Source of the DNA: Antedon mediterranea
Lineage: Eukaryota > Animalia > Echinodermata
Length of the DNA stretch: 64,000 nt
Assembly (NCBI RefSeq): GCF_964355755.1
Contig: NC_092670.1
Coordinates: 33,654,388-33,718,387 of the forward strand
Reading direction: 5' to 3'
Positions 15,032-57,389 of the stretch are shown piece after piece. The position numbers and the translations under genes are program-made. The notes under the pieces were generated by a model. That model searched no databases, was not told where the DNA came from, and saw only the letters and a list, made by a program, of their open reading frames with translations. Position 1 is the stretch's first letter. Each line of letters starts with the position of its first letter.

Positions 15032-15156
15032 CTATATTATAACATTATTTTCCTCAGTGTGTGATTCCTCATGGTCATCATCATCGATCTGAAGAAGCAG
15101 TGCCCCACTAATCTGACGTCGACAAAAGTCTGTTTTAAGTTTCTTCAAAAAATCAA
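15032..15156 (-). CDS. Exon 19: short acidic cytoplasmic tail and stop
   Basis: VDFLKKLKTDFCRRQISGALLLQIDDDDHEESHTEENNVII*; TTTTCAG acceptor, phase 1 matches exon 18. Confidence 0.85.
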
Positions 15157-18100
15157 CTGAAAACGAGAGCAAACAAATAATTTAATAAAAAGTACCCAGA
15201 AACTATTTGTTTTATAAGCAATTGGCTAAATCTGGTGGTTTGATAGGCCTATATATTCATTATATACATTCGCTTAATTCCTTACCAATTACGATCAGCA
15301 TGATAGAAACATTCAGCATAATTAGAATAACGGGAGTTATCTTGTGTAGCAAACCAATGACGTCATCTCCATTGACATTTTGATCCACGTTTACAATCGC
15401 CCCAATGGATAGATTGACAACGATAAAGACAAGAGTCAACAATTGAAATCTTTGCTCGGATTTCTCTTTCATTGGCTGAAGGTACAAATGCAATACAATA
15501 AAGATGACAGTAAAAAACAATGAGTATGACAAACTTGATGACACGTCATCTTTTAAGTTGGAAATGAGTGCCAACAGAGCCTTGTTGTACAGCTCAAATG
15601 ATTCCCAAAACCAAAATGTGTGCTTGTATTGTCCACAAAAGAACCTCACACCAATCATCCGTCCTTGATCTTGGTTTTCTTCATGTTGATCACAATGTAC
15701 ATGTAGACAGTATAGCATAAGAACTATTACCAATGGGAAGCCAATGATGTATGTTAAAGAAACGTAAACAAGTGTTTTGTTGACTTCATATGTAGATCCA
15801 TTATTTTGGTCAAGATCAATCGAGTAGTCTGACGTTAGTACTGTTTTATTGACATTACCATCTTCTGTAACGTTATATAAACGAATTGACCATGGTCCAA
15901 CCGCCATGATGTCTGCACATGTATTTGCATATGTAAGGTAAAGAAGTAGCATTGACACAACGATACATTTGTCACGTGTGCGGCTCTTAGTTATTACCCC
16001 ATGACACGTATGCCACGTATAAAACATAAGGTAAATAGCGGACATAGTTATTACTATGAAAACAGGTGTGCAAATAGCAACTTGAAGTGACGAATATGCA
16101 TTCCAAGATTTAAGTAAACATCTTGGGCTTAGCATACTAATATATCTTATGACGTCAAAATACTCAAGTATTCTACCAGCAAATTCATAGCTTTTAGGCC
16201 AGTGAATTTCAGTTACTTCTGACAGTATACCTAAAACCTGATAGAAGTTTATAGAAATTTTTAAATATGTCACAAATGAATCTAGTTTTGTTTGTCGCTG
16301 GTGGTCGGTGTTCCTTTGTTGTAATCTCCAAATGAGACATATAACTCCAATCGTTACAAAAATAACACACATAAATATGACAACAGTTAGGAGAGGGCCT
16401 TGGCATTTGTGACATTCGTTAAATAACTGATAATATCCTTTTGAACATGCTGCACAAAGCCAACCAGTGTATCCTTTAGCACAAGTGTCATTTAATTCCA
16501 ATCCAATGCTACAACTATTATTTCCTAGAGGACACAGGTGAATTTGTGGTAATGGACCTTTGTATACAGCATATTTTAGTTGGTTTGGATCGTCAATGGG
16601 AAAATTGTAGTTTTTTAAATTATTTATAAATGTGTTGTACGCCGACAAACAAGAACTTTTGTTTTGTTCTTCATCTACAATACAATCACCAGGAAAATCC
16701 CAGGACCACCAGTATCCACGTGTTAGATTCATATATCCTTCATTACACGTGACGCCCTCCGGACAAGGCATACATGGACCAAACCGATCAGTTCTATGGA
16801 ACTTGTCGAGGCAATAACAAGCATTTAGATTAGCAAATGCACTTGTATTGGTTCCAGATGGACACGTCTGGCAATCCGCGATAGAAGCTGCTCCTGCATT
16901 TTCTGAAAAACTTCCAATAGGACATTGTTGACAGGTCTCTCTATAATCAATCTTTCCCATAACTCCGCGTTTTTCTTGATAGAAGCCACCTGCAACGACG
17001 AGATAATAATGTTTGCTAAATTTAAATAAATATGTCAAATGTAAATATTATTTGCTATTTAACTGAAAACAATTTGATGTCATTTAAAATGTTGGACATA
17101 AATTAATTAATAAATGCCATAAATTACCTGGAGGGCATTTTTTACATGATGTTTCACGTTTCGACATTATTTTGTATGTTCCCTTTTGGCATGGACTGCA
17201 TATTCTCGTTTCTGAATTACACGTCATACCAGTACCCAGATAAATATACCTTAATATCTCTTCAGAAATGTCTACATTGATGTCTGTATCTTCAGTAACA
17301 CAAATACTAGTAAACAATAAATTATAATAACAATAAGTTTTGCAAAAATTGTTGTCTTAGTATAAACATAGGTACTATAACTGATAAATTGCAAAAGTCC
17401 GCAGTGACTTGTCTAAATTTATATCTCATCAGGAGGAACTCAACGCACTTGGAGCATTTAAACTAAGAGATAGTTCACGTACATGTACGGCATACATTTG
17501 GCGTATATATTGCGTAGCATACGCCTTTATGTGAACTAAGCAGTATCGTTATTAACGCAATTACGCCACGGCGTTATTAATGACAGCTATATACCTATCT
17601 TAACGTACGCCAATAACTACAGCGAATCTTGAATAATTTTACCTTATTTCAAGATATTCATAATCAATTCATGTTTTACTGTTGTATTGTAAATGTTATT
17701 GCTGATATAAAAACAACTGAGCTATTTAGCTGCTCTCTGCTCTTCGATCTGAAAGCGCATGAAATGTTTAGGGTGAAATAAAACATTCACTTTTTTTCAC
17801 AATGTATCCCACTTTATAATTTATTACAGATTAATTCAAAGTATTAAATAAAAGATTAATTAAACCCTGGTGGATAAAAAAAGATATTATGGAGTGGAGT
17901 ACCATCAAGGTCATGCCCACAGATGGTTCTCGAATAACAGTAATTTCAGCGTAAAAAAAAAATGGCGATTTTCAAATTTACGCAATGCTTAGTTTGTCCT
18001 TCATATGAACGAATAAATGAACACGGTGATTTATGTAGTCAACCAAAATAAGCTCTTCATCAGTGCAAGTGAAGGAATTTGTATAACGTCATAGTATAAG

Positions 18101-24732: not shown

Positions 24733-24785
<53 letters not shown>

Positions 24786-27700
24786 ATAGCAACGTACACC
24801 AACAATGGCGTAACTTCCAACAGCAACGTACACCAACAATTGCGTAACCTCCAACAGCAACGTACACCAACAATGGCGTAACCTCCAACAGCAACGTACA
24901 CCAACAATTGCATAACCTCCAACAGCAACGTACACCACCAACAATGGCACAACCTCCAACAGCAACGTACACCATCAATCACGTAACCTCTAACAGCAAC
25001 GTACACCAACAATGGCGTGATATCCAACAGCAACGTACACCAACAATGGTGTAACATCCAATAATAACGTACCCCAACAATGGCGTAACCTCAAACAGCA
25101 ACGTACACCAACAATGGTGTAACCTCCAACAGCAAATACACCACCAACAATGGCGCAACCTCCAACCGCAACGTACACCAACAATGGCGTAATCTCCATC
25201 AGCAACGTACACCAACAATGGTGATTAAATTAATTAATTAAATTTCAGTATATCACCGGGCGGTTTAGAATTAATGTTCATTGCCTGATGTGTTTATATT
25301 ATATAAAGTATCTCTTCGGAGATCCCGCCTCGTGAATAAAAATACTGAAAGATGAGGGCGTATCAATTTGATCTCTGGTGCGCGTGCGTACAACTGAGGA
25401 CTAGTGCTGTTCCACCGTACCACGCCGAGAATGTTAAAGAGTCGCTATCCAATCGAGTTTGAACAATACCATGAAAGCCCCAGTGGTCTAATGGTTAGGA
25501 CATCTGCATATCAAGCAGGCGGTCCGAGTTCGAGTCTCAGTTGGGGCGACTTTTTCTTATTCTCACAGATTTCCTCATCTTTATCGTTTCAAATTAATTA
25601 ATTAAATTTCAGTATATCACCGGGTGGTTTAGAATTAATGTTCATTGCCTGATGTGTTTATATATATATATAAGTATCTCTTCTGAGATCCCGCCTCGTG
25701 AATAAAAATACTGAAAGATGAGGGCGTATCAATTTAATCTCTGGTGCGCGTGCGTACAACTGAGGACTAGTGCTGTTCCACCGTACCACGCCGAAAATGT
25801 TAAAGAGTCGCTATCCAATCGAGTTAGAACAATACCATGAAAGCCCCAGTGGTCTAATGGTTAGGACATCTGCATATCAAGCAGGCGGTCCAAGTTCGAG
25901 TCTCGGTTGGGGCGACTTTTTCTCATTCTCACAGATTTCCTCATCTTTATCGTTTCAAATTAATTAATTAAATTTCAGTATATCACTGGGCGGTTTAGAA
26001 TTAATGTTCATTGCCTGATATTTTTATATATATAAAACTATCTCTTCGGAGATCCCGCCTCTTGAATAAAAATACTGAAAGATGAGGGCGTATCAATTTG
26101 ATCTCTGGTGCGCGTGCGTACAACTGAGGACTAGTGCTGTTCCACCGTACCACGCCGAGAATGTTAAAGAGTCGCTATCCAATCGAGTTTGAACAATACC
26201 ATGAAAGCCCCAGTGGTCTAATGGTTAGGACATCTGCATATCAAGCAGGCGGTCCGAGTTCGAGTCTCGGTTGGGGCGACTTTTTCTCATTCTCACAGAT
26301 TTCCTCATCTTTATCGTTTCAAATTAATTAATTAAATTTCAGTATATCACCGGGCGGTTTAGAATTAATGTTCATTGCCTGATGTGTTTATATATACATA
26401 TCATTAATTCTAAACCTCCCGGTGATATACTGAAATTTAATTAATTAATTTGAAACGATAAAGATGAGGAAATCTGTGAGAATGAGAAAAAGCTCCAACC
26501 GAGACTCGAACTCGGACCGCCTGTTTGATATGCAGATGTCCTAACCATTAGACCACTGGGGCTTTCATGGTATTGTTCGAACTCGATTGGATAGCGACTC
26601 TTTAACATTCTCGGCGTGGTACGGCGGAACAGCACTAGTCCTCAGTTGTACGCACGCGCACCTGAGATCAAATTGATACGCCCTCATCTTACAGTATTTT
26701 TATTCACGAGGCGGGATCTCTGAAGAGATACTTTTATATATATAAACAAATCAGGCAAAGAACATTAATTCTAAACCGCCCGGTGATATACTGAAATGTA
26801 ATTAATTAATTTGAAACGATAAAGATGAGGAAATCTGTGAGAATGAGAAAAAGTCGCCCCAACCGAGACTCGAACTCGGAACGCCTGCTTGATATGCAGA
26901 TGTCCTAACCATTAGTCCACTGGGGGCTTTCATGGTATTGTTTGAACTCGATTGGATAGCGACTCTTTAACATTCTCGGCGTGGTACGGCGGAACAGCAC
27001 TAGTCCTCAGTTGTACGCACACGCACCAGAGAATATATATATATATATATAGATTCGTTGAGTCAGCAAATGTGCTCAATTGAAATCAAGAGCGAATATA
27101 TATTTATGAATTAGATAGAACACGGGCGTCTATTTCACGGTGTTTCACGTTAAACGATCTTATATATATATATATATTATATATAACTCATGATTTGCAA
27201 AATATGATTTACGTTAGTACCTACCTACATTATAATTAACAAAAAATAAATAAGTACTTTACGTTTTTATATTTTTTTCAATACCATTCGGGAGTGATTG
27301 TAGTCCACCGCAGTTCAGATATCTAAATAAAGATAAGGTTGTATTAAGTACATGCGAGTTCAGTGACATAATGGAAAATGATGATACTAATAGTTTTAGA
27401 TAATGAACAAGATAGTTACGAAATAATGTGTTTTTTTTTCCTTACATTGTTCCATTTTCTTTCATATTTGACAAAGCATTTTCCCCGATCTTGTCTAATT
27501 TATTGTCAAATAGATATCTGAAAAAAAAATGTCATTAGTTTGAAATATCTTTGTTTTGGTTAGGTTTCTAATTAATTAAAACGTCTATAACACAGATCAA
27601 AAATGTATTATTTTACTTATTTTAAAATAGTAACAAATCTCACATGTATTTCAGCGTTTTACCATTGGTTGTTAATGTTTGATAGGTAATGTTAGCAATT

Positions 27701-30700
27701 TCATTCCCATAAAGGAAGCTGGAGAAAAAAATAATGAACACATGAATGACTTTATCATTTAAGTTCAACGGCGTCATCGTCATAATCGTCGTCATCATCA
27801 TCATAATCATCGTCATCGTCATCAGCATCGTCTGATATGTAAATAGCAGCTCTAAAAATTAAAAAAAATGTTTGCTCGCTTTACGTCAAAATAGCATTTA
27901 CTATTCTTAAAATGTTCCAGTGCTTTTCTTTAAAACATACAAATGCTGCATGCAACTTTCAGGTAATCTATAAAAAAAAACACGGATAACTTTTTTCTAT
28001 TGAATAGTGTAGAAAGTTATTTAACGTGCACTATTATGTACACGGGACCAATATTGTAATTAACTTACAGAAACTGAAGATTAGTTCCACTAAATGCCCC
28101 TTCTTCTATAGAGGTAATGCTGTTTCCCATTAGCATTCTAACAAAAAATTATTATAGATTAAGCATTGTTTTAGATAGGTTTGAAGACTAAAACATTATG
28201 TTTTAAATGAAGCTTTTAAAGGAATTATAACTTGTTTAGATTATTTTTCATGAGCAAGACATGTACACGTTTTAAATCCATATCTGAGAAGACGTTTTCC
28301 ACCACCAGTATTTTGGTGAAGGAGAGTCTTGTCTTTCTTAAACATTCGTCAATCGAAATGATGATTATACTTACAGCCTCTCAAGGGATTCCATATCAGA
28401 AAAGATATTTTTGGAAATGTGCTGAATTTTATTTTTGTGTAATAGTATGTTCTGAACTGGAGGTATCCGGCCGTCTTCTAATGATGTCAGATTGTTCCAG
28501 CTTAAATCTCTAAAAGATACACAGTGCGTAAGAAGGCATCAAAATAATGTATTGCCGATTGTTTGACTGAACAAAATACGTAACTACTGTGGTATCATAA
28601 TACTAACAAAAGGTCACTCATTAGATTATTAGACTTAAGTGGACTAGGTACAGGAGTTGACACTTAAGAATGACGGATCTTCAATTAGACTCTAAAAAGA
28701 AACATTTTTGCATTTGTTTTACATGTGTACTCATTATGTTAATTAATTCTAGGTGGGACATATATTGACTTTTGACCCTTTCTTAAGGGGTCATGGTACA
28801 GGATTTGGCACTTAAGAATGACGTTTTCTCAGTTAGGTAAATGTACTTATTGTATTGTCAAAAGTTTCATCGATGTACTCGACCATGCTAATTAAAATGC
28901 TAATTAGCCTCAGACCTTTTGTACTCGCAATGCTAAACAAATCTTCATAGGCTGCCGGATTAATATTAAAACAGTAAGACCTAAAGAGACAACATTTAAT
29001 ATTGGTAGAGCATTTCATAAATTTGCGATTAAGTGAGTTGCTTCTAATACACAAAGATATGAACTGACTATAAATGCATTCGCCTTTATCTTTCAGTATA
29101 TTAAACTCTCTAAATTGTCCGGTGATAAATCAAGATATCAGGTTTGTAATTTTGTTTTAGTTATTATCCTTCCAAATTGAATATTATATAATTTGATTTT
29201 ACGACTGTGGGTCACATGGCGTGCAATAGTACGAACTATTAAACGATCGTTTAATAGTACTTTTTCGTGTACAAAAAAAAACCTTTTTGCGTTTGGGAAA
29301 ATATTTTGTTTATATTATTGATTTTGATGCCACCTAGTTCGTACTTTCGCCGCGATTTGAATGTTATGACTGGTTTTCCGCAAAGGAAGTACTTTTCTAG
29401 ACAGATATATGTACTAATTTAGATCAAAAATGCACTTATTAGTTTTATATCATTTGTAGGATTTTGATTAATTAATAGGAACATCCCTACAAGACGTGGA
29501 ATCGTCGGAAAAACATAATTAGCCTAGATGAGTAACAGTTGTCTGTCAAAGTTGCCTTCCAGCCTAGGCCTAGCTAGTACTAGCCTTGGCCTAGGCCTGT
29601 TGGTATTATGCTAAGCCTAGTCTAGGCGTTTTAGCCTTGCTAGGCCAAGGATTGTTCCGTCGTTTGTTGACAAAGTTAACACTAACGTAGGTGTGTTTAT
29701 AAAATCCATATAAATATAAAATTTAATATAATATTATTAAAATCAAAATGTTACTGTTTTAATCAATGTGACTCAAATGTAGCCCTTAGCTTGGGCTATA
29801 TTTTATTTGATTAACATGACATGAATCTATTTAGATGTTACATGAAACAAATAGTAAATGTTTTATATTTGTGTAATGAAATAATGGCATTTTGTGAATG
29901 ATGAAGGGTTAAAAATTACCTTTCATCATTCACCTTAAGCTATTATTTGTACCATTACACTCATAAACATTCATTATTTGTTTACCATTTATTATGTATT
30001 GAATGTACTACCACCAGTTCAAAAGATTGTAAGTTACCAACAAAAGAAAAAGAACATAAACACTTACAGTAAAAATTCTATTCGTGAGTTAACAATGTTT
30101 GGTAGTTCCGTAAGTTGGTTGTTCGTAAATTGTCTACGTAAAGAATCATTTAATGCACTGTATTAATAATGACTTTTCCTTCTTTTACGATATCATAATC
30201 ATTATAACGAATACGTTTAATTAATAAGATTATAATAATATCTAAAACAAATTCTGGTTTTACAGGTGTATACTAAAATGTGTTACTGTGGAGAAGTGAG
30301 ACAATTTATAACTACAAAACTGTATATAAATCTTTTATTTTTGCATTACTGTTTATTTATTATAAAAAAAATGCTTATATAAGATTATTTTAAAATTGGT
30401 TTACGCATGCACCAAACTCACAGTAGACGGATAGTGTCCACAGCAACGAAGGCATCCTTATCTATAAATCGAATTTTGTTTTCTGCGAGTGAGCTATAAA
30501 AAAATACATAAATAACTTGTAAGAATACTTTGCATAGAATAATATACATTGGTTGTAAAACATTTGCTCCATCATCTTTCCAAATAACTATCGATAGTAA
30601 AATTAATTATGCCTAAATTGATTTCATTTTTTTTTTACATTTAGAAAAAAGCAAAATTAACCAAAAGTTAATTGATATTCGACGATGGTTAGCTTAGCAG

Positions 30701-31961
30701 TGAGGAAATACTTACATCTCTTTAAAATATTTTCCTTGAAAAGCTCTTGCTGGTATGCTCTGCAGACTGTTTCCAAATAAAAATCTAGGACAACATTATT
30801 CCAAAATTATAAACACATTTGAAGTGAAACTGCAAGCAAATCTTTGAAAGACCATGGCGATTGACTTAGGTTTCTTAGTAAAGTAAACACTATTATGAAA
30901 TTTGTCAAAACGTCATAATTATGCATATATCTCGATTGCCTTTTATAGAACAAGATTTACTATTTTGTTTACCATACGAGCCATTACGATAAAATAAATA
31001 AAATTTAAATTAAATTAAATGCAAATACAAGTATATAGTCCAGGAGCTTATGTCGAAAAAAAGGCACTTGTAGAATGTTGATGTTAATTGTCGGCACCAA
31101 CGTTTTTCTGACTCAGAAAAACTTTGGTGCCATTTTTTTCGACCATGGCAAGTGGCCACCATTTTGAAACCTACGTTTTTTTTTTACCTAATTTAAGGTA
31201 AAAAACTACATTTTATGTAAAAATTAATATAAATACTCATGTTGTATGTTTACGAAACAAATATAAAAGTATTCATTTTTAGTTAAATCCCCAAGACCTG
31301 AAAATGTTGTCGTTTTGTAAAAATAATGTAGATATACATATAATTTTAAAAACATTAAACCAAGTCTTGTCTTAAATGTACGTTCTAAGGTTAATTATGT
31401 TCAAAAGATAACGGTAACGTACGAACATCGTACGCTTGCTATAATGCTTAGCCCGACGTTGTCTCATTGCTGAAATAATTTTCTTTCCTTTTTTTGGCAG
31501 AATCCGTTAATACAAAATGGAAGAAGACCTGGTATTTTCGCAGAAAAGTTATGGTTCTCTTATTTGTTTTCACGATCGCTGACCGAAACTGATCGCATCC
31601 ATATCAACATGAAAATATCAATGCCTTGTGGGATTTAGCGGGCCGATTAAATTATTAGAATCAACTTATTTTTCACATTTTTAACAGTTTAAAGACGAAA
31701 AAAGTTATAAAAATAGGATCATATAGTATTTATTTTTACATAAAATGTAGTTTGTGACCTTAAATTAGGTCGAAAAAAAGGTAGGTCATAGGGCTTTAAC
31801 ACATTGTTACAGTAATAAACTCACTTATTTTAAACTTGAAATAATGTGTATAGCTATATTATCTATAGACAAAATTTAAACTTTCTAGAAAATGGTGTGA
31901 TGAATGTAGAAACTATATGTACAGCTGTACTAAGTATAAAATATATATATATAAATAAAAA

Positions 31962-32850: not shown

Positions 32851-32895
<45 letters not shown>

Positions 32896-33503: not shown

Positions 33504-33590
<87 letters not shown>

Positions 33591-40200: not shown

Positions 40201-40506
40201 ATATGTGTCTGAAAAAAAAAAGTTATATCATTTTTATAAGTAGTAGTGGTGGTGTTGGTAGTAGTGGCAGTGGTAGTGGTGGTAGTGGTGATAATGATAG
40301 TGGTAGTAGTATTGGTAGTAATGCTAATGGTAGTAGTAATAGTGACAGTAGAGATAAGTGGTGGTAGCAGTGATAGTGGTATGAGCGGTAGTAGCGGTAC
40401 CAGTATTAGCGGTATAGGCAGTAGCGGCAATGGAAGCAGCAATGGCGGCAGCATTAGCAACAAAAGCAGTAGCATTATCATCAGCAGTATTAGTAGCAGT
40501 AGCAGC

Positions 40507-40605: not shown

Positions 40606-40614
40606 ATAATAGTA

Positions 40615-40680
<66 letters not shown>

Positions 40681-40690
40681 CAGTAGCAGC

Positions 40691-40724
<34 letters not shown>

Positions 40725-42887
40725 GTAGTAATAGTAGTAGTAGTATTAGTAGTAGTAGTAGTAGGAGTAGCAGTAGTAGTAGTACTAGTAGTAGCAGCAG
40801 TAGTAGTGTTGGTGGTGTTGGTGGCGGCAGCAGCAGAAGCAACATCATTAGCAGTAGAAAAAACAGCATTAGCAGTAGCAGTATTAGCTATAGTAGTAGT
40901 TTGCAGATTTTCGTTATTGTTAAAATACGTTAAAAAAAATGTATTCACTTACAAATGATTTACCAAATTGGAGCCTTTAAATGTAGTATTTTTTAGTATA
41001 GATATACTGTTGCGATCTATATTTCTATTCCAACAGCAATACAAAATGAATTATTATAAATAATAATATTGTTCAAATAGCATTGTTATATTCGATATGT
41101 GTCAATTTCAATTTTTCCAAATACTTTTTGTCAAAAACCAAAACATTCTCATTTAGTTTCGAGAACGAATGGGTCAACTGCAATAACTATCGAGTAAGAA
41201 CAATTCTCAAAACCATTATGTTTTATAAAAGCACAAACATGACAGCCAGTTTTGCCTGACATTAATACCAACATTCTTGTCTCTCATTCCTACTATAATA
41301 TCTATCACAGTAGTTTGTTTATAGAAAACATTATTAACTGACAAATTCCCATCTTCACAACCTTGAAACCCACTATAAAGTATAGGTTCTATACTTTGTT
41401 TCGGTTTATTATTTTTGGCACATTTTTATGGCATTTCATACGTATAAACTTGAGCTAACTTCACAGTCTATGAAGACGCCTACTAGTACGGGTTATTATG
41501 TCTTCCAGCTCGATATTTGTGCCAAAATAAATTTTTTTAGCTAAAATTGTTATTCTTGAGATGCTGAATCCAAAAAAGTTAGGTGCCATATTTTTCGACC
41601 ACTCCTTCAGCCGCCATTTTGTATTTCAAAATGGCCGACGTTCCACACTAAACTTGGTCATCCATGGTATCATTGGAAAGGGAAAGTAATACTGATTATT
41701 TTATTCCATTACATCCATATGAATAAACGTATAGTTACATAGTTATTGCGAAATAAACAAATCACGTGACCAATAAAGGTCAAAAGGTCAAATTTTTTAT
41801 TCTGAATACCGTTTACTAATATCTATTCTATTTTACTTTGTTTATTGTCATAATTTTCCAATTATGTAAATAAATTGTTTTTAAATGTTCCTTGTTGTTT
41901 TTTCATGCTAATTACTTTCTTATTTACATACAATCTGTCCTATTGGTATATAAGTACTTTAGGCGTTGTTTTCTGTTCTTCTTCTGATGAAAATAGTTTA
42001 TCGAAACATGTCACATTTTAAGGCAGTTTGCCTATTCATTAAATCGCTATACTCATTTTAACAATGACAAAAGTAGTCTCCTTCGTATTAAGATAAATAC
42101 GGTTTTTCTTATTGGTTTTACAATTCAATCAAATGTTTGTTTGATTTTCATTCTACTTTGTTATTGTCCATTTATATGTTTTATAGTATATTATATATTA
42201 TCTTAGTACTAAATAAGTACCGTACGGTACTGGATTACACTTAACTTCAATGTCAAGTTTCCGAGTTATTTAATTTAAATCAAAATAAGTCCGTGAACAA
42301 AGGTGAAGTAAACTGTTGTCAAGTCACATCTTTGTTTTGTTTCGTTGGATAGAAATTCTGAATATATTTTATTTTTAGTAGTTTACATTTCTGTTGTTCG
42401 TAAAAAGAAAAAAATGCTACGGGTCATGGTATCATTTGCGTAGCGTTCAAAATCATTTGTATTTTTGTCAAAGCGGGTACCACACAATATAAAGCCATCT
42501 GTGCACAATGCCAATGTTAATCGGCATGCCTTTACCTTTGAACCTCAGATGAAGTGCAGCAGCAAACAGAATGTTTTCATTTGATATTATTTTATACAGT
42601 GAAAAAATCTTAAGAATTAAAAAAAAAAAGTTAAGATCAATTAGTTTTCCTCAAATAAAGTTTACACGAAATAAAGAAAAGTCAGTGTCCTACTGCTGCC
42701 TTCACTACCTTTACAAACTACCAATCGATATTGTAAAGAAACGAATTCGGTGTTTTTAACGTCTATAGGTTCCCTTTGATTTTTACGTATGGTTTGTGAT
42801 TATCGCAATATAAATCCTAACTATACGTTGTTATTATTAAAAGTCACATAGAATAATTAATCAAACTATACTTGTTTGTGGTAACTT

Positions 42888-42920
<33 letters not shown>

Positions 42921-45900: not shown

Positions 45901-48900
45901 AGTGCCTTTTCACCGAGACTCTGAATTGTTCAATATATAATATATTTGATATATTAAAATGTATGGTTACCTTCCTTTTTGTATCGTCGATATACGTGTA
46001 GCCCTACACCAAAATATGGTCTCTGCAGCTAGGTCTATAATGTTCACATATTTTTTGTAAATTGATTCCTTGGCCGGAATCCTTTTTGGTTTTTCATGAT
46101 TCATCGACAGATTCCATTTCACTTGAAAACGAAATGTTTTGTTAAAATAATTGTCCTTCCTTTTTAGCTTGTTGTGTTATGGAATTTTGTTTGTGTTGTC
46201 TTTTTGTTGTCTATAAATGATTGACCTTGAAAGGCCGTTGCGTGTAACAAACTTAACTAACTATAATCTAGATATATAATATTTTTACTCGGGGTACCCG
46301 AGTCTAGTACTTACTCATTTTCTCCTCCACCATCTGGACACTATTGAGTAAAAAGTGCGATGTAGTATTGAGCTGGGATTTGGCATGAACATACTACAGG
46401 GACATGTCCTCAAAGCTATAGAGCCGGATTTTTAATTTTTTGTTAATTAATTTGTTTAATTAAGAATCCACAATGTGTGACACACACCACAGCGTTATGT
46501 AGTTATATGGTTATATGCGGCTTCTTGGCGTAGTGGTTATCACGTTTGCTCAATACGCAGAAGGTACCTGGTTCAAGCCCGGGCTAAACCTTTTTTTTAA
46601 ACTTTATGGTGAAAAGTACTGTATACGCAATATGATAATTATACACAGTATATCTTATTATTATTTTTTAAAATACTTATTTTGTGTAATCGGTAATTAT
46701 CACTTTTACACATGTTTATTTTGCTTTGTGCTTATTACCATTTATTTGTAATTTAAATGGATTAAAAAACTTTCTGTAACCCACAATTTCAATGTAAGAG
46801 GTTTCGTAGTGTAGTGGTTGTCAAGTCTGCTTAACACGCAGAAGGTCCCGGTTCGAGCCCTGGCGAAACCTATTTTTCTTTAACTTTCTAACTGTATACG
46901 TCTGTATACAGCTTCTTTCGCTGTACCCCGAGTATTGCACATTCGTGCTTGTTAGGATTGGTATTATTGCATTGATCCCGTAATAAAGCATCCTTTCATT
47001 GGATATAATTAATCAATACCGGCAAATCCCTTCATAATTCGAAGCTTGATGTAATTTGCCCAAGATAAAATGACTAAGCTGTCCGCGTAGTTTATTTACG
47101 GCTAAAGTACTAATAAATACAACAAGTTTTGCATGCTCTAACGGGGCCAAAGGATTTGAAAGTAGACCAAATGACCCACCGGTGATCTAAAAGTAAAACC
47201 ATTTCTAGAACATGATTAGTATTTTAATTTGAAATACGTTTAAGATTAATAACGCATACTATTATATTTAAACTTATTTAATTTACCTTTACAATAAATT
47301 GTGTTTATAAAACGCTATTATACGTCTTCCATAGAAAAGATATTTTGCATGGTAAACAATCGAGCAAGAATAGATATCATCTAACTGAAGACCGACGTAG
47401 TTGGCGATCCATCATTGCATTTCGAGGAGCCGTCAGACATGTCTAACATGATTATATCGGTATATTTTGTCAAGAAAAGATGTTTACCGTGCCTCATTTA
47501 TGTGATGTAATGTTCCAAATCCTTAAATCTGGTAAACAATTATTTTAAAATATCCTTTTAATTGGATTCTTATATACTGTATAGGTATAGATGAAATCAC
47601 CAGAACGTATGTTAAAACGAGAGCTTTCGTTATACTGGATACTCGGCCGTACCCTATATAACTAGTTGAGTTGTTGGTGGGACAATGTTAACTTGTATGA
47701 CTTAATTCTAATACCTTGTTTGGAAGTACGTACAGAAATTAGTCAACCTTTCGACTAATCGCATTGAGAAACTATTTCATTTTAAGATAGTTTTTTTAAA
47801 ACGCACCAGTTTACAGCTGTAATTATAGACATGTCAAGGAGAATCCGTATTGATAAAATCATGAATACTGTAAGGTTAATATAATTATAAAGTGTAACTA
47901 ATTAGATCATTTGGAAGAAAATTGAGAACCAACTAAATACGACCACAATCGTTTATATACGCAGGCATATGGTATTTTTTTTTTTAAGAGAATGTTACCT
48001 TCGCTACAGGTTTCAAGAGTGAAAGAATATGGTATAAATGAAATGGAGTTTTTTTGTTATCATGATCAAAATACTATCTCGAAAAGAAGCCATATTATCT
48101 TGAAAAGTGTGCATCTTTTCGAGATTTTTAAAACGTCCATGGTTTCAAAAATACAGAATACCTTTTAAAAACAAAAATAAACTAGAGTTTAATTGTCACT
48201 TTGACGAAGTATAAGTATATTGCTGTCAATGATATTCGTATATCCCAAAAGATAATAGTTAGGCTACAATGTAAAAGGAATTATGCCATGAGGCTCTTCG
48301 CCTGGATTGCCAACGGGCAACGAGCTACTTTTGGGGAAACTTACAGGATAAAGTTGCTGTCAATGGTATTTGTGTGCATCCCAATGTGTAGCAGTTACAA
48401 TGCAAAAAGAATTAGCCGCGTGGCTCTTGACATAAATAACACCATTTTTGAGTGGTCACTTAGGGCTAATGTCTCGTGCAACTTACAGGATAAAGTTGCT
48501 GTCATTGCTGTTTTAACATTGTATACATATGGGAACGATGTCCAACCAATTTTATCCGTATGGCTTTTCATGTGATTAAATCCATTTTTTACCCCTCCTA
48601 TTTGAGAAAATTTACAGGATAAGACCTGGCAGCAATATTGATTATTGAATCTTAGCTATATATCTACACAATCAGTAATAATTGTATAATTCTACTGCAG
48701 ACTCTTTCAACTTTACATTTATCTAGTTCCGTTGGATTGTAAATGCTATTAGGTAGTAATAACACCTTTATCATTAGGTTAATAATGGCACAATACCAAC
48801 ATTTTTTTTTTAATGTAGGCATATAAAAATATATTTTCGAAAAACTTGAAAAATCGATTCTTAAATCGATGCTAAACTTACACAGTACTAAGATGTGGAA

Positions 48901-51900
48901 GGTCATTAAAACATGTCGATACTTCTGTCAACATGTTATTCATTGCATATCTAGGAAATTAAAAAAATAAACATAAATTCCAACAAAATTTCCGATTCTG
49001 TCTTTAATTATAGCACAATTTAAGATTTTTTTAAACAATAATTTTTGTTTCAGTAAGGAATAATTAAATGTTTACTAGGCTTACTCTGACTAGTAATCAA
49101 AATAATTTTTTAAAAAAGATGATGGTTTTAATACATTACAGTTAGTAGTTGGATGGTATACTATAGTACTTACACTGAAGCAATTGTCTTTGGAAACTTT
49201 GGCAGACTTGTTAGTGAGTTATTAGCAAGGTTTCTGTAAACATTAAGTAAATTAAGTGGTAAATTATTCTATTTTCTTTGAAATAAGCGCATACATGTTT
49301 GTGTAATGTATGCCACAGTCTATTTTAATAGGAAGTATTTAAATATAATTACTATTACAGCGTGATGGTAATTATGTGAAAGATGTTGCTAACCACTCTA
49401 AAATCTTGAACGTAAAATCAGACAAGGTATCATTGTAGGACATTATTCTTTTCCCTATGGATGATGAATGTGTAAGGATGAGCAACAGAAAAACGATGTC
49501 AATCAGGGAATTTCACTCTTCAATCCAGTTTGTGAGAGTGTCGTTTTTAGCATTGTTAACAATAATTATGATCTTTCTGTAAATCATATCCTGAGTAATG
49601 GACACAGATAACATTGATAAAATAATGTATCATTAATAAATTAGACATATTTAAAGGAGCAAAACAAGATAAAAAAAAACCAAAAAAATGATAATTCATT
49701 TTGAAATCTTACATTGAAATAAGATCCTGTAGCTCTAACAAGGCATTGGTGTCGATTTTCTTCAGGTTGTTATCGCTTAAGTAACTAAAAAACAAGTAGT
49801 TATGTTATGTTAAAACTACTAGTTTATTTTAAAAAGTGGAGTTGTTGGTGGGGGTTATGATTCTTTGCTACCACCCCAAGGGTCCTGGGTTCAAGTCCCG
49901 TTACATGTCAGGATTTTTTCTAAGGACCAAATTACAACTCCACTCCCAAAGACTTGTAATAAGACTTTGTTTATGTAGAGCATCTTGTGTATATGTTTGT
50001 CTTGTGACCCTCTGATGGTTCCTAATGATCAGCATTTGCTGGATGGATCACCCTCATTAAATATGGTTAAAAAAAAATTAATTAACAATAAAGTAAAAGC
50101 ACCAAACATTAGAGAAATACATACCCGTACCCTCTTTTTCCCCAAAGATATGTATGCAATTCTCTCTATACGTTTTTAATTTTGGCTTATATTAAGAAAA
50201 CAATAAATATAGGCCTAATGTGTTCTATAAGTGTAAGTTCTTGACGGAAGGATGCGCATGCGCAATATTGTATATGGAATTGGGACTACCGTATCCGGGC
50301 AATTTCTACCTGAATTATAACCTACACTAACTACATATTGCATCTCACATAACACGTACATAGTTAGGAGGCCAGTGCAAACTTTGTTACCAAATTACAT
50401 ATTTAATATATTACAAAGTTTATATTATTATTACTTTTTATATGTTATTGGTGAATAAGCTGCAGGGGCGGTCGCAAGACTATTTTAAGAGGATTTCCCA
50501 AACAGGGCTGTAGACAGGTTGCTGATAATGAAAGTAAACTAGCAAACAAGATTCGAAGACTTTCCGATAACAGATATTCGTCCAACCACAAACCCAGGCC
50601 TAGCAAAGACAATCTCAAAAAATCTCTCCAATCGAAAGATAAATCGAATAATACAAGGGCTTAAGCTACATTTGTAGCAATAAGAAGAGTAATGGAGACT
50701 TTATGTAAGTAAAAATCGTGAATAAACTATACAAAACCAGCAAACAAGATTCAAAACTTTTACAACTTCAGAAACGCGTCCAACCACCATGAAGCGCCCT
50801 CTATCTGTCTTACTGTATTCTAAGGAATGGTGAGATTTTTCTTTTTTAGATTGTCTTTCGCTAGGCCTAGGGTTGTATAAGCAGGTTAGGGCATGGCTTC
50901 CAAAAGCAAAGATCAAGGTGCCAGGCCAAAGCCTAGATCACGTAATGCAGGAGGCACAGTTGATAAAACGGTAGTTGATATCGAGGGTGAAGACGAATGT
51001 GGTTCATGTGGTGGCCATTTTATGTCTGGTGGCAAATCGGTTTTATGTGGACTTTGTAAGCTATGGTTCCACATAGATTGTCAGAAAATTAATGAAGCCA
51101 AATATAAGTGGCTATCCAAAGATGACTCATCCATTTTTTGGTACTGTAGGAGCTGCTCAGTCTCAGTAGGCAATTTCATGGGTCTTATTAATAATGTTAA
51201 TGAGACACAAAAAACCATGATTAAAACAATTGAAGCAATTAAATCTGAGGTAGAGATCAATAAAGAGGATATTAAAAAGTTATCCCAGTCATCTAGTGTT
51301 GTTAATAATGAGGAGGTTAAGACAATAATTGAAAATAGACTTAAGGATGAAAATGAGAGATTGAAAAGAAAATCTAATTTGATGCTATATAGAATAGATG
51401 AGTCCAAGAGTAATTACTCAGATAGAAGAAAAAATGATGACCTCAGTAAATTGACAGGTATTTTCGAGGATATTGACCTAGAGGTCGAAATGAGAACATT
51501 TTTCCGGGTGGGTAAACACAGAGAAGATGGGTGCCACCCTATAAAGGTAGTTTTCAAGGAGGAATGTATCAAAAGAGATGCCTTTGAAATTGCTATACAA
51601 AAAAAGTGCGCAGTCTAGTAAGTAATGATAGACCAATAAAGGAACGTGATGAGTATAATAAACTTAGGGACATATTGAGGGATAGGCAAAGCAAAGGGGA
51701 AAAAGACTTGGTAATTAGAAGGGGGAAAATAACTCGGTTTTGTTCCCAAAGCACTACCCAATCGGAAGAGAACACTGCCTAACAATGTAAGTTCTACGCA
51801 GTCAGAAGATGTTAATGATTTTTTAATGTGTTTTATACAAATTGTGATTCCCTTCTAAATAAGAAGAATGAGCTTCTGTTGCGTTTATCTTCAGAGAAAG

Positions 51901-54900: not shown

Positions 54901-57389
54901 AGTGCGCTAGCAAACAAAGGATTGTAGACTATATTATTCCGCTGGTAATAAAACATACGTACGCGATATTTTGTGCGTTCAATGCGAACGTCAAGTCATT
55001 GATGAAGGTACTTATGGTACAGTCATACATTCTAATAACTGTAATCGACTAATGCAAATTAATTATTAATTTGTTTAAAAAAAATATGAAGCTGCTGCTA
55101 TAAATATATTGAGCAAAACATTAACTTGCATTATTTTGAATTAAATGCTATATATATATATATATATAACCAATATTTTCAAATTTCATTTTCAATTATC
55201 CACTATAAACTGTACAAGTGTTGCTTAGACCACCCTTCAAAATAAAACGAAGAACATTTGCAGACAGAAGCAAAATTTGCTCTGCTACCGGATAACGTGT
55301 TTCAAAGTTCAGGATGTCGATAAATTACTATTTCACCTAATATTTACGGACGTGCGGAAATGAAGATAAATAGGGTACTACACGCGTCGGAAATACAAAC
55401 TATACGTACAATGATTTGGCCTTAAAATATGGAAAACCCAGACAAAACACAATAATCGATTGGCAATATGCCTAGGGAAACGATATGAATATATTTCATT
55501 TGTCGATTTTATTTTACGCAAAGTTCATGTGTGAATGCTTGATCCATTAGAGGGTAATCTGATGGCGCTAGTAACACTAGGAGGGTGAAGTCTGGTAATG
55601 TGTAATGATAATTTAACAAGCCAGAGATGAAATAAAATCACGAAAACATTTAGCTGATTGTTGTTGTGTTAGTCGGCGTCAGAAGTTTATCGACCGACAT
55701 CACATATCTATTTCTCATGTGTAGTAGAGCGTTTTTATTGAATAATTTTGTTCGTAAGTTCATTTTAAGTAAATTGAAAACCAATGGTTTATTCAAATTC
55801 AACACTGTAACTAATCCCTCACTATTCAATAATTATATTAATATACTATACTATTATATTGTTGAAAAATGGATTGCGTGATATGAAAATTGATTGACAG
55901 TAAAACGTAACAAAGATACGTTTTAGTCTGATTATTAGGTATCCATACAGTGATGAAGCTGAAGTATTTTGTAGCGTTCATTGTAAAGGTAGTTAAAATC
56001 GTTGCCATTACTTTTTTTTTACCAATTTTAACAATTAACCTAACAACAAAACATTCAACAATGATAAAATGCCCTGCAACTCTGTAACTACTTTACGATT
56101 AAGCATATCAAGGTCCGGGTCCCTCCACACCCCCAACCCTAAATTTTAAAAGAACCCTTTTTTTATTATTTTAATCTTTTTTTAATTATGTGACATATTT
56201 GTGTGTATGTTTGGATACACAACGGCAAAAACGCAAGCAAACAGCAATACGATCGTAGCAGAAACACACGCGATGAAAAATAGGATAACATAACATGCTT
56301 CAATTCCCGATGAAGTAACTTCCGTTACGGTAATAAATTATGTACATTAATTATTATTATCAATTATTAATGATTTTAAAAAGTTAGAAAAAAAAATATG
56401 AAGCTGCTGCTATAAATATTGAGAAAAACGTTTAATTGCATTATTTTTAATTAAATGCTAAATAAGTAAAACAACAATTTAACTGTATATAAAATAATAA
56501 ATATAACTTTGAAATAATGATGGAAATTTTGCAGAAAGAAGACAATTTTTCTCAACTACCAGTATAAAACTGTTACTACAGGAATGTACGGACGTATACG
56601 GAAATGTAGATAAATAGGGTACTACAGTACACGGAAAAACCAAAATTATGATTGGGCCTTAAATTATGGAAAACCTCCGGCAAAACGCAATAATTATGAA
56701 CAAATTGACTAACCCTATGATTAGTGTTTGTAAGCCTCTTTTTGTACCTTTTATGATAAGGAGAGATACATTTCCCTGCTCTCATGACGCCGCACCACAA
56801 GCAACAAGTCAGAAAAAAAATTCATTTTGCGCATGCATTTACAAAAAAATACGTCGACCGCCGTTGTATATTGTGCTAGGTATAGTAGGTCTTTAGTGAC
56901 TGCTGGTTAAATATTACGGTGCATTCTGAAAATTTACAAATATTCTCTTCCAGACTGGACTTATATAACGTTATATGAATATTGTATACGATGAAATGGG
57001 ACGTAAATTTTTATTTAGTGGCAGAAACAAAATTTAGTATGAAATTAAGGATGTTGCCCTGGTCACTAGAGCAACAACCCTGGGTCCGCCCCTGAGCTGA
57101 AATACATGGAATTAAGTTTTATTTACTTACTTTTTGTTTACTAGATTTATGAAATTCAATCATAATTTAAAATCTAAACTTACAGCACCAGTGTATTTAC
57201 AGGAATTCCAACTGGCCATTCATTGAGTCTACGGTTCGTACAATTCACTATTCGTGTTCTTTCTGTGCATTCACAAACTGCATTCACTTTAGTATCATTA
57301 CTACATGCAACCTCAAAACATATAGATGATTCCACCAACAAACAAAACGATAAAAAAGTCAATAAATTATGAGACATCATCTTAAACAT
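15032..57389 (-). CDS. 19-exon gene for an LRR / Cys-rich repeat / multi-pass membrane protein (~1107 aa)
   Basis: Exons with canonical AG/GT and matching phases: 57389-57184, 49784-49713, 49233-49174, 48950-48882, 41024-40953, 40208-40140, 39592-39515, 39174-39103, 30784-30716, 30493-30422, 30133-30068, 28509-28375, 28137-28069, 27718-27644, 27517-27446, 27322-27263, 17306-17128, 16989-15286, 15156-15032. They splice into one open frame of 3324 nt. Additional missed LRR exons cannot be excluded. Confidence 0.85.
15286..16989 (-). CDS. Exon 18: ephrin-receptor-like/TNFR-like Cys repeats plus ~9 TM helices
   Basis: Lies within the 592-aa ORF; CQQCPIGSFS, CQTCPSGT, CMPCPEGVTC, GYW, CAKGYTGWLCAACSKGYY, then KISINFYQV, WP, YKHTFWFWESFEL, QPMK and hydrophobic segments; GCAG acceptor, GTAAG donor. 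Confidence 0.93.
17128..17306 (-). CDS. Exon 17: linker plus first Cys-rich repeat
   Basis: ICVTED...CSPCQKGTYK...SCKKCPPG; phase 2 in, phase 1 out. Confidence 0.9.
18048..18612 (-). mobile_element. Penelope-like GIY-YIG 3' fragment, same family as 3372-4200
   Basis: NVIYLIYCNICGKQYVGETKNTLRMRMTQHRS near-identical to the first copy; 3' region ends in CTGATGAAGAGC. Confidence 0.9.
18626..19040. repeat. Foldback segment with repeated CGAAGTGACACTAAC motifs and a perfect hairpin
   Basis: 49-bp perfect arms 18917-18965 / 18969-19017 with a GCA loop. Confidence 0.85.
20137..20378. repeat. 34-bp minisatellite (AACAGCAACGTACACCAACAATGGCGTAACCTCC)
   Basis: About 7 tandem units; continues at 24525-25222. 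Confidence 0.9.
20383..20800. repeat. 49-bp minisatellite
   Basis: AACTATAACTCCAATAGTAACACAACCAGTAGGCTGTACCCTCTGGCTC, about 8 copies. Confidence 0.92.
20800..24520 (-). mobile_element. Degenerate Gypsy LTR retrotransposon with internal deletions
   Basis: PBS TGGCAGCAGTGGGAT (24328-24314, tRNA-Leu-like) after an LTR end ...CGTTACA; gag (RRQKPNETL), CCHC knuckle CYNCQQKGHLARQC, protease LVDAGASDTV, integrase C-terminus PKLQCKWHGTY...VHVDQMKPY; RT missing. Confidence 0.88.
24525..25222. repeat. 34-bp minisatellite interrupted by a short (ATT)n-containing insert
   Basis: About 16 units; insert ~24630-24785. Confidence 0.9.
25225..27032. repeat. Family-A tRNA-like array: three direct units then two inverted units
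   Basis: Period ~365 bp on + up to 26390; reverse-complement units 26402-27032. Confidence 0.92.
26207..26278 (+). tRNA. tRNA-like gene, anticodon ATC (Asp-like), best-preserved family-A copy; probably repeat-derived
   Basis: GCCCCAG/TTGGGGC acceptor stem, TCTGC/GCAGG anticodon stem with loop ATATCAA, CCGAG/CTCGG T-stem, intact A and B boxes, T5 tract 2 nt downstream. Confidence 0.5.
27263..27322 (-). CDS. Exon 16 (60 bp), last LRR / cap
   Basis: IYLNCGGLQSLPNGIEKNIK; TAG/GTAAAG. Confidence 0.85.
27446..27517 (-). CDS. LRR exon 15 (72 bp)
   Basis: IYLFDNKLDKIGENALSNMKENGT; CAG/GTAAG. Confidence 0.9.
27644..27718 (-). CDS. LRR exon 14 (75 bp)
   Basis: LFLYGNEIANITYQTLTTNGKTLKY; CAG/GTGAG. 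Confidence 0.9.
28069..28137 (-). CDS. LRR exon 13 (69 bp)
   Basis: LMLMGNSITSIEEGAFSGTNLQF; AG/GTAAG. Confidence 0.9.
28375..28509 (-). CDS. LRR exon 12 (135 bp, two repeats)
   Basis: LDLSWNNLTSLEDGRIPPVQNILLHKNKIQHISKNIFSDMESLER; AG/GTAAG. Confidence 0.9.
28880..29130 (-). mobile_element. Degenerate LINE RT C-terminal fragment
   Basis: CIRSNSLNRKFMKCSTNIKCCLFRSYC resembles the post-RT region of CR1/L2-group LINEs. Confidence 0.4.
30068..30133 (-). CDS. LRR exon 11 (66 bp)
   Basis: LQFTNNQLTELPNIVNSRIEFL; AG/GTAAG. Confidence 0.88.
30422..30493 (-). CDS. LRR exon 10 (72 bp)
   Basis: ISLAENKIRFIDKDAFVAVDTIRL; AG/GTGAG. Confidence 0.9.
30716..30784 (-). CDS. LRR exon 9 (69 bp)
   Basis: IFLFGNSLQSIPARAFQGKYFKE; AG/GTAAG. 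Confidence 0.9.
32001..34140. repeat. Family-B tRNA-containing repeat cluster in direct and inverted orientation with (TA)n spacers
   Basis: At least six copies of GGCTCTGTGGTCTAGTGGTATGATACTCGCCCTGTAAGCGAGAGGTTGCAGGTTCGAATCC in both orientations. Confidence 0.9.
34880..37015 (+). mobile_element. Degenerate Penelope-like element (RT plus GIY-YIG) with a nested LINE fragment
   Basis: KIHK..RPIV, SHDVVSLFTNIPV, WKRYVDDIL, YRKPTHTDQYLHFESHHP, VYEIPC..C..TYIGET; many stops. Confidence 0.85.
35240..35985 (+). mobile_element. L2/CR1-group LINE 3' fragment nested in the Penelope element
   Basis: KINKLQKRIARMITNS...LKMLNIYD...FMFK, followed by an AT-rich 3' UTR with AATAAA. Confidence 0.7.
37316..38460 (+). 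mobile_element. Helentron/HINE-like element
   Basis: Starts AACTAG; subterminal GGTTATCCGC near the 5' end and hairpin GGTTATCCGC-CAAGT-GCGGATAACC before an A-tract at the 3' end; internal GCGCGC motifs similar to 6950-7400. Confidence 0.55.
39103..39174 (-). CDS. LRR exon 8 (72 bp)
   Basis: VFVSNNPNLEKISTGTFKNITTGS; AG/GTAGG. Confidence 0.88.
39515..39592 (-). CDS. LRR exon 7 (78 bp, atypical repeat)
   Basis: LRIQFDIEIQVLCENAFALATDYTVE; TAG/GTAAGT, phase 2-2; lacks the conserved Asn. Confidence 0.7.
39630..39850. repeat. Degraded, rearranged family-A repeat
   Basis: CTCGATTGGATAGCGACTCTTTAACATTCTCGG (inverted) fused to CACAGAT...TTATCGTTTCAAATTAAT (direct). Confidence 0.8.
40140..40208 (-). 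CDS. LRR exon 6 (69 bp)
   Basis: LHISENHILGIEPFTFVNVQLNL; polypyrimidine CAG / GTAAG. Confidence 0.9.
40230..40900. repeat. (AGT)n microsatellite / low complexity in intron 5
   Basis: Long AGT run. Confidence 0.95.
40953..41024 (-). CDS. LRR exon 5 (72 bp)
   Basis: VNIDRNSISILKNTTFKGSNLVNH; AG/GTAAG. Confidence 0.9.
41484..44864. mobile_element. Non-autonomous DNA transposon with ~400-bp TIRs and 3-bp TSD (Academ-like)
   Basis: TAC|TAGTAC...GTACTA|TAC; TIRs ~41484-41880 and ~44410-44864; the paralog has a single TAC at ~6358. Confidence 0.75.
46519..46590 (+). pseudogene. Degenerate tRNA-Val pseudogene
   Basis: GGCTTCTTGGCGTAGTGGTTATCACG...GCAGAAGGTACCTGGTTCAAGCCCGGGCTAAACC followed by T8; stems broken. 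Confidence 0.65.
46800..46870 (+). tRNA. tRNA-Val(AAC), likely pseudogene
   Basis: GGTTTCG/CGAAACC acceptor stem, TCTGC-TTAACAC-GCAGA anticodon arm; D-stem and T-stem mismatches; T5 downstream. Confidence 0.7.
48882..48950 (-). CDS. LRR exon 4 (69 bp)
   Basis: VYAMNNMLTEVSTCFNDLPHLST; AG/GTAAG, phase 2-2. Confidence 0.9.
49174..49233 (-). CDS. LRR exon 3 (60 bp)
   Basis: INLANNSLTSLPKFPKTIAS; AG/GTAAG, phase 2-2. Confidence 0.9.
49713..49784 (-). CDS. LRR exon 2 (72 bp)
   Basis: LYLSDNNLKKIDTNALLELQDLIS; AG/GTAAG, phase 2-2. Confidence 0.9.
49838..50065 (+). mobile_element. Degenerate tRNA-derived SINE
   Basis: B-box GGGTTCAAGTCCC after a tRNA-like 5' end; not seen in the paralog. Confidence 0.4.
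50893..51781 (+). pseudogene. CR1 ORF1 (PHD finger, coiled coil), frameshift near 51600
   Basis: C-x2-C...C-x2-C-x4-H-x2-C...WYC-x2-C; RKSNLMLY, FRVGK. Confidence 0.85.
51828..54692 (+). pseudogene. CR1 ORF2 (APE plus reverse transcriptase), frameshift near 54140
   Basis: TE, YRS, GDFN, LDLVL, SDH; GPDG, NYRP, QFGFR, KAFD, GIPQGS, FADD; EKDLGV, RPTLEY, EKVQQRATR. Confidence 0.92.
55040..56700. repeat. Diverged ~400-bp direct duplication in intron 1
   Basis: AAAATATGAAGCTGCTGCTATAAATAT at ~55082 and ~56393; GATAAATAGGGTACTACA at ~55365 and ~56609. Confidence 0.7.
57184..57389 (-). CDS. Exon 1: signal peptide plus LRRNT cap
   Basis: MFKMMSHNLLTFLSFCLLVESSICFEVAC...CECTERTRIVNCTNRRLNEWPVGIPVNTLVL; typical LRRNT (C-x-C...V-x-C...L...P..IP); GTAAGT donor, phase 2. 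Start could be ATG 57389 or 57380. Confidence 0.85.

Follow-up and report, generated by a model that had tools for sequence, protein, structure and literature searches.

A candidate crinoid receptor that joins leucine-rich repeats to a predicted nine-helix membrane domain of the CRMP/Pkd2 type

The window analyzed here, a 64,000-nt stretch of the Antedon mediterranea genome, contains a real and intact gene for a protein of 1107 residues that is very probably a receptor with a CRMP-type core and that is likely to be located at the cell surface. In the reading that we prefer, for which the case as a whole seems evenly balanced, the leucine-rich repeat (LRR) arm of this protein would bind a ligand outside the cell, a disulfide-bonded Cys-rich stalk with its DUF7630 cap would relay this binding to a nine-helix unit, and that unit, of the CRMP/Pkd2 type, would be gated or switched to give a calcium or secretory response. 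If the protein is indeed a receptor with a CRMP-type core, then calcium or secretion is a somewhat favored candidate for its output by analogy, the points counted for it being that CRMPs are needed for discharge and that Pkd2 passes calcium, as the available accounts of those proteins describe.

The gene consists of 19 exons, all on the minus strand, running from the ATG at 57389 to the end of the TAG at 15032. Its coding sequence of 3324 nt has no internal stops, all of its introns (18/18) are GT-AG, introns 1 to 16 are in phase 2, and introns 17 and 18 are in phase 1, which bears out the 19-exon in-frame gene proposed in the initial annotation. Minus-strand splice-site scans by themselves gave an 18-exon model that was open throughout, with short phase-2 exons encoding one LRR each. 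Exon 14 (27718-27644) was located by a gap relative to the paralog P0002 and by a tblastn match with P0005.

Exon 1 (57184..57389) carries the ATG, a likely signal peptide, and an LRRNT (residues 1-69) and is 82% identical to residues 1-65 of P0002. The splice scan and paralog comparison define the next exons: exon 2 (49713..49784; LRR1, 72 nt, phase 2-2), exon 3 (49174..49233; LRR2, 60 nt), exon 4 (48882..48950; LRR3, 69 nt), exon 5 (40953..41024; LRR4, 72 nt), exon 6 (40140..40208; LRR5, 69 nt), exon 7 (39515..39592; the irregular LRR6, 78 nt), exon 8 (39103..39174; LRR7, 72 nt), exon 9 (30716..30784; LRR8, 69 nt), exon 10 (30422..30493; LRR9, 72 nt), and exon 11 (30068..30133; LRR10, 66 nt). 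Exon 12 (28375..28509, 135 nt) encodes LRR11 and LRR12 (LRR_8, E 5.4e-05) and contains Met341, at which the NCBI protein P0244 starts. The same junctions as in P0244 are found for exon 13 (28069..28137; LRR13, 69 nt); P0244 also supports exon 14 (27644..27718; LRR14, 75 nt) and, along with the splice scan, exon 15 (27446..27517; LRR15, 72 nt) and exon 16 (27263..27322, 60 nt), which encodes the last repeat, the irregular LRR16. Exon 17 (17128..17306; also in P0244) encodes a cap and the first Ephrin_rec_like Cys repeat (PF07699, 24.6 bits versus a cut-off of 23.1). Exon 18 (15286..16989, 1704 nt) encodes the Cys-rich stalk, DUF7630, and the whole membrane domain, as indicated by Pfam, AlphaFold, and P0244; within it, DUF7630 is a juxtamembrane Cys domain with the motif LCxxCxxGY (16403..16516; PF24633, 28.8 bits versus a cut-off of 27). 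Exon 19 (15032..15156; gene model and P0244) encodes the stop and 41 residues including an acidic run, a likely cytoplasmic tail that agrees in length and character with the one claimed earlier.

P0244 is identical to residues 341 to 1107 of the 1107-residue model (767/767). It spans exons 12 to 19, so that an independent annotation ties LRR exons to the membrane exon. Since it begins at Met341 and is without exons 1 to 11, the support for the junctions of exons 1 to 12 consists of splice signals, reading frame, and the paralog. That paralog, the NCBI-annotated P0002, is colinear with the model at 82% identity over the full 1107 residues, which rules out chance as the origin of the model; further full-length NCBI paralogs are 66% (P0003) and 64% (P0004) identical. 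P0002 was also considered as an ortholog of the gene and rejected, as P0244 is the protein of this locus and P0002 is a paralog on another contig. Repeat number varies among these proteins, with two extra LRRs in P0002 and fewer in P0004; the phase-2 LRR exons are symmetric, so repeats can be gained or lost in frame. In Apostichopus japonicus, the clusters P0040 and P0041 have many NCBI isoforms per locus that differ in length, which may reflect skipping of LRR exons.

Four Logan relatives of 1136 residues sit whole on contigs of 3656 to 3861 nt, which leave no room for long introns, so that the LRRs and the membrane domain are contiguous in them. Reads of four runs over 14800-31200 cover the introns, and no GT-AG exon joints are among the 15 joints listed of 358; these reads thus behave as DNA and are uninformative on splicing. 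Their summed depth is higher over exon 18 than in neighboring bins, which is not a measure of copy number.

It is highly improbable that the locus yields a shorter product starting in exon 12, or is decaying, with exons 1 to 11 outside any working receptor. Such a product would match the start of P0244 at Met341, and P0245 and P0016 are similarly short; decay would suit the LINE and the gypsy-like element in the introns and the truncated inverted copy that adjoins the gene. However, exons 1 to 12 are in frame, have consensus splice sites, and are colinear with the full-length P0002, P0003, and P0004. In addition, a start at Met341 would put no signal peptide before a disulfide-rich ectodomain, which suggests that P0244 is an incomplete annotation.

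The inverted copy, on the plus strand at 1207-9849 of the window, comprises five intact in-frame LRR exons of the same family (1207-1266, 1924-1995, 2513-2581, 6653-6724, and 9781-9849) with 81 to 93% nucleotide identity to the exons compared. Neither the stretch before the 3′ end of the gene nor 57400-64000 yielded later exons of this copy, which must therefore be truncated, rearranged, or misassembled. Synonymous and nonsynonymous counts between the two copies (8 and 25 over 109 codons) are too few to interpret, and one exon pair is probably mismatched.

Intron 1 contains a LINE retrotransposon (50890-54692, plus strand) with a PHD-finger ORF1 followed by an endonuclease and a reverse transcriptase with frame breaks, and a reverse-transcriptase fragment is located upstream of the gene (58006-58566, plus strand). 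A broken gag-protease-RT retroelement, likely gypsy-like, is found in intron 16 (about 20800-24600, minus strand), where a zinc knuckle, an aspartyl protease, and a weak RT match are flanked by short tandem repeats. Fragments of GIY-YIG endonucleases, likely from Penelope-type elements, are present at 18294-18638 (minus strand), 36573-36884 (plus strand), and 3728-4187, the first being 94% identical to the last. At 25477-26927 and 10623-11058, repeated units of roughly 365 bp contain seven tRNA-Asp-like genes, whose anticodon, ATC, is unusual; they are likely tRNA-derived repeats. Intron 8 (32117-33792) contains six tRNA-Thr(TGT)-like copies that do not all face the same way, and one tRNA-Val(AAC) occurs in intron 4 (46799-46872).

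In the ectodomain, 16 LRR beta-strand motifs are in register. Together with Ephrin_rec_like (PF07699) in exon 17 and DUF7630 (PF24633) in exon 18, both above their Pfam cut-offs, they confirm the LRRs and Cys-rich stalk of the initial annotation, and a motif scan recovered each of the motifs that it had singled out (CAKGYTGWLCAACSKGYY, KISINFYQ, and WFWE). Its signal peptide and LRRNT stand in part: hydropathy makes a signal peptide in exon 1 likely, whereas the LRRNT is a weak Pfam match (E 0.03) that falls below the cut-off. Foldseek matches of a full-length P0002 model are LRR proteins, e.g., LRIG1 and the ectodomains of LGR4 and LGR5.

In comparison with P0002, 90% of the membrane domain is identical, as is 80% of the stalk; within the LRRs, the figure is 71% for concave positions and 86% for the others. 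The excess of change at concave positions over other LRR positions has P values of 0.006 for P0002, 0.001 for P0003, and 0.09 for P0004; in comparison with polar positions only, the values for five paralogs are 0.052, 0.055, 0.35, 0.22, and 0.19. The faster change of the concave face is a weak sign of ligand diversification. VLR-like hypervariable cassettes were considered and rejected, as the exons are not near-identical copies and the concave-face excess is weak.

The AlphaFold model of exon 18 (92 sequences; mean pLDDT 88.7, pTM 0.85) has nine long helices; two short ones follow helix 2, and a beta-hairpin separates helices 4 and 5. The nine predicted membrane helices (15290..16396, minus strand), to which family hydropathy and sequons in the TM4-TM5 loop also point, correspond to residues 697-724, 728-757, 796-828, 833-861, 893-934, 960-976, 981-1002, 1008-1034, and 1041-1065. 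The same membrane layout appears in the model of full-length P0002 (60 sequences; pLDDT 84.8, pTM 0.64), in which residues 84-124 are poorly predicted. The approximately nine hydrophobic segments of the initial annotation are thus matched by the modeled helices, whereas a Kyte-Doolittle plot has only about seven clear hydrophobic peaks C-terminal of the stalk. The likely signal peptide, the odd number of helices, and the positions of the sequons suggest an N-out, C-in topology; with the N terminus outside, nine helices would leave the hairpin, which bears the N-glycosylation sequons, on the outer face and the acidic tail in the cytoplasm. Polar residues conserved across the family are found inside the predicted helices (K, Q, E, E, K, H, Q, N, and N). 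A homodimer prediction for residues 145-567 of exon 18 scored 0.00, which is evidence neither for nor against a dimer.

Pfam returned no GPCR, TIR, or ion-channel family for exon 18 at an E value of ≤1. Foldseek with the exon-18 model returned nothing at an E value of ≤0.001, and a fold search gave only partial helix-bundle matches, the best to Orai (Z 9.5, rmsd 8.0, 113 aligned); the model, at 567 residues, is above the size at which such searches are reliable, and these outcomes speak neither for a new fold nor against any family, the 7TM fold included. Sequence searches of solved structures with exon 18 or its profile gave no significant match (best E value, 0.16).

The closest studied relatives of the predicted membrane domain, as judged by eye from shared motifs, are apicomplexan and ciliate CRMPs. 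The family consensus and the CRMP cores displayed in supplement 5 of PMC9815656 share motifs in the same order and at near-equal spacing, in an unscored comparison by eye in which the three spacings counted agree within about four residues. In order, the common motifs are C-P-x-C, LCxxCxxGY, CxxCP, the K-I of helix 2, (W/F)P, one lone Cys, L-R-x-x-x-x-x-x-C, G-x-P, and W-Y-W-E-x5-R-K; two cysteines around the hairpin also match. The W-Y-W-E-x5-R-K pattern is present in 93 of the 164 proteins tested. The InterPro label of DUF7630 is, we take it, “CRMPA-like,” and PANTHER PTHR11319 presumably covers such proteins.

In the available text on the CRMPs of Toxoplasma and Plasmodium, these proteins have Cys repeats and nine membrane helices (PMC9815656, PMC9670195) and exposed N termini (PMC9670195); the C terminus of TgCRMPa was shown to be cytosolic, and rhoptry or mucocyst discharge requires CRMPs (PMC9670195, PMC9815656, PMC3083381). 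As far as those accounts describe them, TgCRMPa/b, Plasmodium CRMP1-4, and Tetrahymena CRMP1/2 are like the Antedon protein in their Cys-repeat ectodomain, juxtamembrane Cys domain, and nine helices (although five are predicted for the Tetrahymena CRMPs), in a C terminus that is probably cytosolic in the Antedon protein as well, and, by eye, in the ordered motifs from LCxxCxxGY to W-E-x5-R-K. Unlike the CRMPs, the protein is an animal protein of 1107 residues with 16 LRRs where they have Kringle/MAR modules, it belongs to a multicopy, lineage-expanded family and not to a fixed set of two to four genes, and its crinoid clade is without the Arg and two loop cysteines considered below. Pfam searches of four of its exons and of full-length P0002 gave only LRR, Ephrin_rec_like, and DUF7630, with no Kringle/MAR-type modules as in the CRMPA clade. 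For this reason, we do not file the protein as a CRMP proper, only as sharing the core.

By profile and motif, the predicted membrane domain is not that of a GPCR, a Toll-like receptor (TLR), or a classical TRP channel. Neither Ion_trans nor PKD_channel was found by Pfam in exon 18 at an E value of ≤1 or in 49 members at an E value of ≤0.01. TLR genes are expanded in echinoderms, and TLRs and single-pass LRR proteins resemble the protein in their LRR ectodomain; unlike theirs, its membrane domain is multipass, and its tail of only 41 residues cannot hold a TIR domain, nor did Pfam find TIR in full-length P0002. The LGRs (LGR4/5, GRL101, and kin) likewise have an LRRNT and an LRR solenoid on a multipass membrane domain. 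In contrast to them, the protein has no rhodopsin 7TM profile match, lacks DRY and NPxxY in a motif scan, is predicted to have nine helices, and has a stalk of the Ephrin_rec_like/DUF7630 kind. The absence of TLR and LGR hallmarks that the initial annotation had stated therefore held at the level of Pfam and motif searches.

These differences, along with the fact that the family profile matches LGR4 in the LRR part only, make it quite unlikely that the protein is a divergent GPCR-like receptor signaling through G proteins or arrestin, for which the LGR-like database names would be roughly right. Some relatives are named “Leucine-rich repeat-containing G-protein coupled receptor 4” at NCBI, and 1 of the 49 members has a weak 7TM_GPCR_Srw match (E 0.0012). 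PANTHER also labels TgCRMPa and PfCRMP1 GPCR-like, although the same paper, in the text available, holds that CRMPs are not bona fide GPCRs (PMC9670195).

The membrane domain had also been likened in the initial annotation to the fungal Flc/Pkd2 domain (PF06011), and this link exists through relatives. P0031 passes PF06011 (36.3 bits versus a cut-off of 28.5), 7 of 49 aligned members match it at an E value of ≤0.01 (DUF7630 is found in 43 of the 49), and 11 to 15% of the members of Atlas neighbors carry it, but exon 18 itself has no PF06011 match at an E value of ≤1. Fission-yeast Pkd2 is described as having nine predicted helices (10.1101/2022.08.11.503631). To the extent that the sources describe them, Flc/Pkd2 proteins are like the Antedon protein in carrying nine predicted helices beneath an extracellular domain, which in their case is an Ig-like lipid-binding domain and in this case consists of LRRs and the Cys stalk; no Ig/ML-like lipid-binding domain was found in the ectodomain by Pfam or in the structure models. 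Reconstituted Pkd2 is reported to pass calcium under stretch (PMC9727806); it is opened, in the portions available, by stretch and not by ligand.

Flc1 is described, in the text available, as regulating calcium homeostasis and flavin transport (PMC9600462). With the PF06011 matches of relatives, this would fit a membrane domain that transports small molecules or lipids, a role suggested for yeast Flc1, with an LRR arm that regulates or places it. We consider such a transporter very unlikely, since a role in recognition accords better with the large variable ectodomain and the repeated lineage-specific expansion than does housekeeping transport.

CRMPA forms a complex with CRMPB, and both have been suggested as escorts of MIC15 and TSP1 (PMC9815656, including the reviewer response), and the available text of that paper reports no channel activity for CRMPs and discusses an escort role. 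On this model, the Antedon protein would be a nonconducting adhesion or recognition subunit, its LRR arm binding a partner and its membrane domain pairing with a family member or escorting or scaffolding membrane proteins. The family clusters of Antedon mediterranea (at least 10) could supply partners, and the loss of a conserved Arg in crinoids could mean lost conduction. Even so, we think that such a subunit is rather doubtful: many polar residues in the predicted helices are conserved, the crinoid clade included, and the fungal relative Pkd2, as reported, passes calcium when reconstituted alone (PMC9727806).

The Arg in question, that of W-E-x5-R-K, is conserved almost throughout the alignment once its nine crinoid rows are set aside (104 of 106 rows), as are the two cysteines of the hairpin (110/112 and 113/114 rows); all three residues are also visible in the CRMP cores of PMC9815656 supplement 5. 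At these sites the Antedon protein has Asn967 (15584..15586, minus strand, by the family alignment), Ile867, and Leu891. The Arg is absent from 23 of 24 crinoid-labeled proteins (19 Asn, 2 Ser, and 2 Thr) and is kept only in P0021. Crinoid copies have lost this Arg and a likely disulfide, both almost invariant elsewhere in the family. Crinoids have thus expanded a derived subtype, which may be gated differently or have other partners and may not work like its relatives.

A phmmer search with exon 18 returned 1361 clusters at an E value of ≤0.001, 301 at 1e-10, and 109 at 1e-30, the best 150 of the 1361 being itemized. At least four LRR motifs are present in 58 of the 71 retrieved proteins of at least 900 residues. 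Thirty clusters were looked up, and all those carrying organism names are from echinoderms (Antedon, Asterias, Patiria, Amphiura, Holothuria, and Apostichopus) or cnidarians (Nematostella and Montipora). Crinoids, sea stars, brittle stars, sea cucumbers, and cnidarians all have expanded sets of LRR-bearing relatives. The paralog count proposed in the initial annotation was obtained for NCBI-labeled proteins only, with at least 10 family clusters on five contigs in Antedon mediterranea and at least 14 clusters in Anneissia japonica; four Patiria family genes have consecutive locus numbers. In a FastTree phylogeny of the 138 proteins (out of 171) that reach 70% profile cover, with four distant sequences as the root and 37 identifiers labeled, crinoid, asteroid, ophiuroid, holothuroid, and cnidarian copies cluster largely by lineage, which suggests independent expansions. 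Thus, what was first called an uncharacterized receptor/channel architecture is undescribed in the literature searched but does not stand alone, being one member of a large echinoderm-cnidarian family.

Outside this core, some distant relatives have a different ectodomain (He_PIG, BspA-type LRR_5, or EGF) on the stalk and membrane domain, and some cnidarian members carry extra CUB, MAM, or SRCR domains. In the Atlas, as a single source, the commonest known phylum of one LRR cluster is Porifera (known for 9/57), and LRR-free clusters come from chlorophytes, haptophytes, and ciliates. An Atlas Ephrin_rec_like/TRP cluster has Nucleocytoviricota as its commonest recorded phylum (known for 4/61 members) and is possibly a giant-virus branch of the superfamily. 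P0093, P0116, P0123, and P0141, from Logan contigs, have other ectodomains on the same stalk and membrane domain and branch outside the labeled animal clades; as a guess, they may come from unicellular relatives of animals.

In the full-text literature, outside which most subscription journals fall, we found no description of this membrane domain in an animal LRR protein and no paper linking CRMPs to Flc/Pkd2; DUF7630, PF24633, IPR056047, and PTHR11319 do not occur among the literature matches listed. The available text of a paper on the “superdark GPCR” TM184C does not mention Pkd2, Flc, or CRMP (PMC13581589), and that of a paper on the actiniarian immunome describes other novel architectures and not an LRR ectodomain with a CRMP-type domain (PMC5094078). 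The parts were known already in Pfam and the proteins in NCBI, where they are without a name or misnamed (“uncharacterized,” LGR4, IGFALS, or carboxypeptidase N subunit 2); what is new is the LRR variant of the CRMP/Flc-Pkd2 kind. Surveys of the immune and sensory receptors of invertebrates tally TLRs, NLRs, LGRs, and scavenger receptors by signaling domain, and in such a tally LRR receptors with a CRMP/Pkd2-type core would go uncounted.

A broader proposal, which we put forward as speculation that will probably not hold, is that echinoderms and cnidarians possess an overlooked fourth class of LRR receptors, namely, ligand-gated channels of a single CRMP/Pkd2 superfamily, expanded independently in each lineage. 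On recognizing microbes, prey, or partner cells, such channels would directly bring about calcium entry and the discharge of granules, and crinoids would have a retuned subtype. An animal member of 1100 residues with one defined binding arm would be far easier than the larger CRMPs for structural work and electrophysiology, which would make the role of the CRMP membrane domain directly testable. If these proteins are gated channels or triggers of exocytosis, animals would have retained a device linking recognition to secretion that has to date been examined in malaria and Toxoplasma parasites, ciliates, and fungi.
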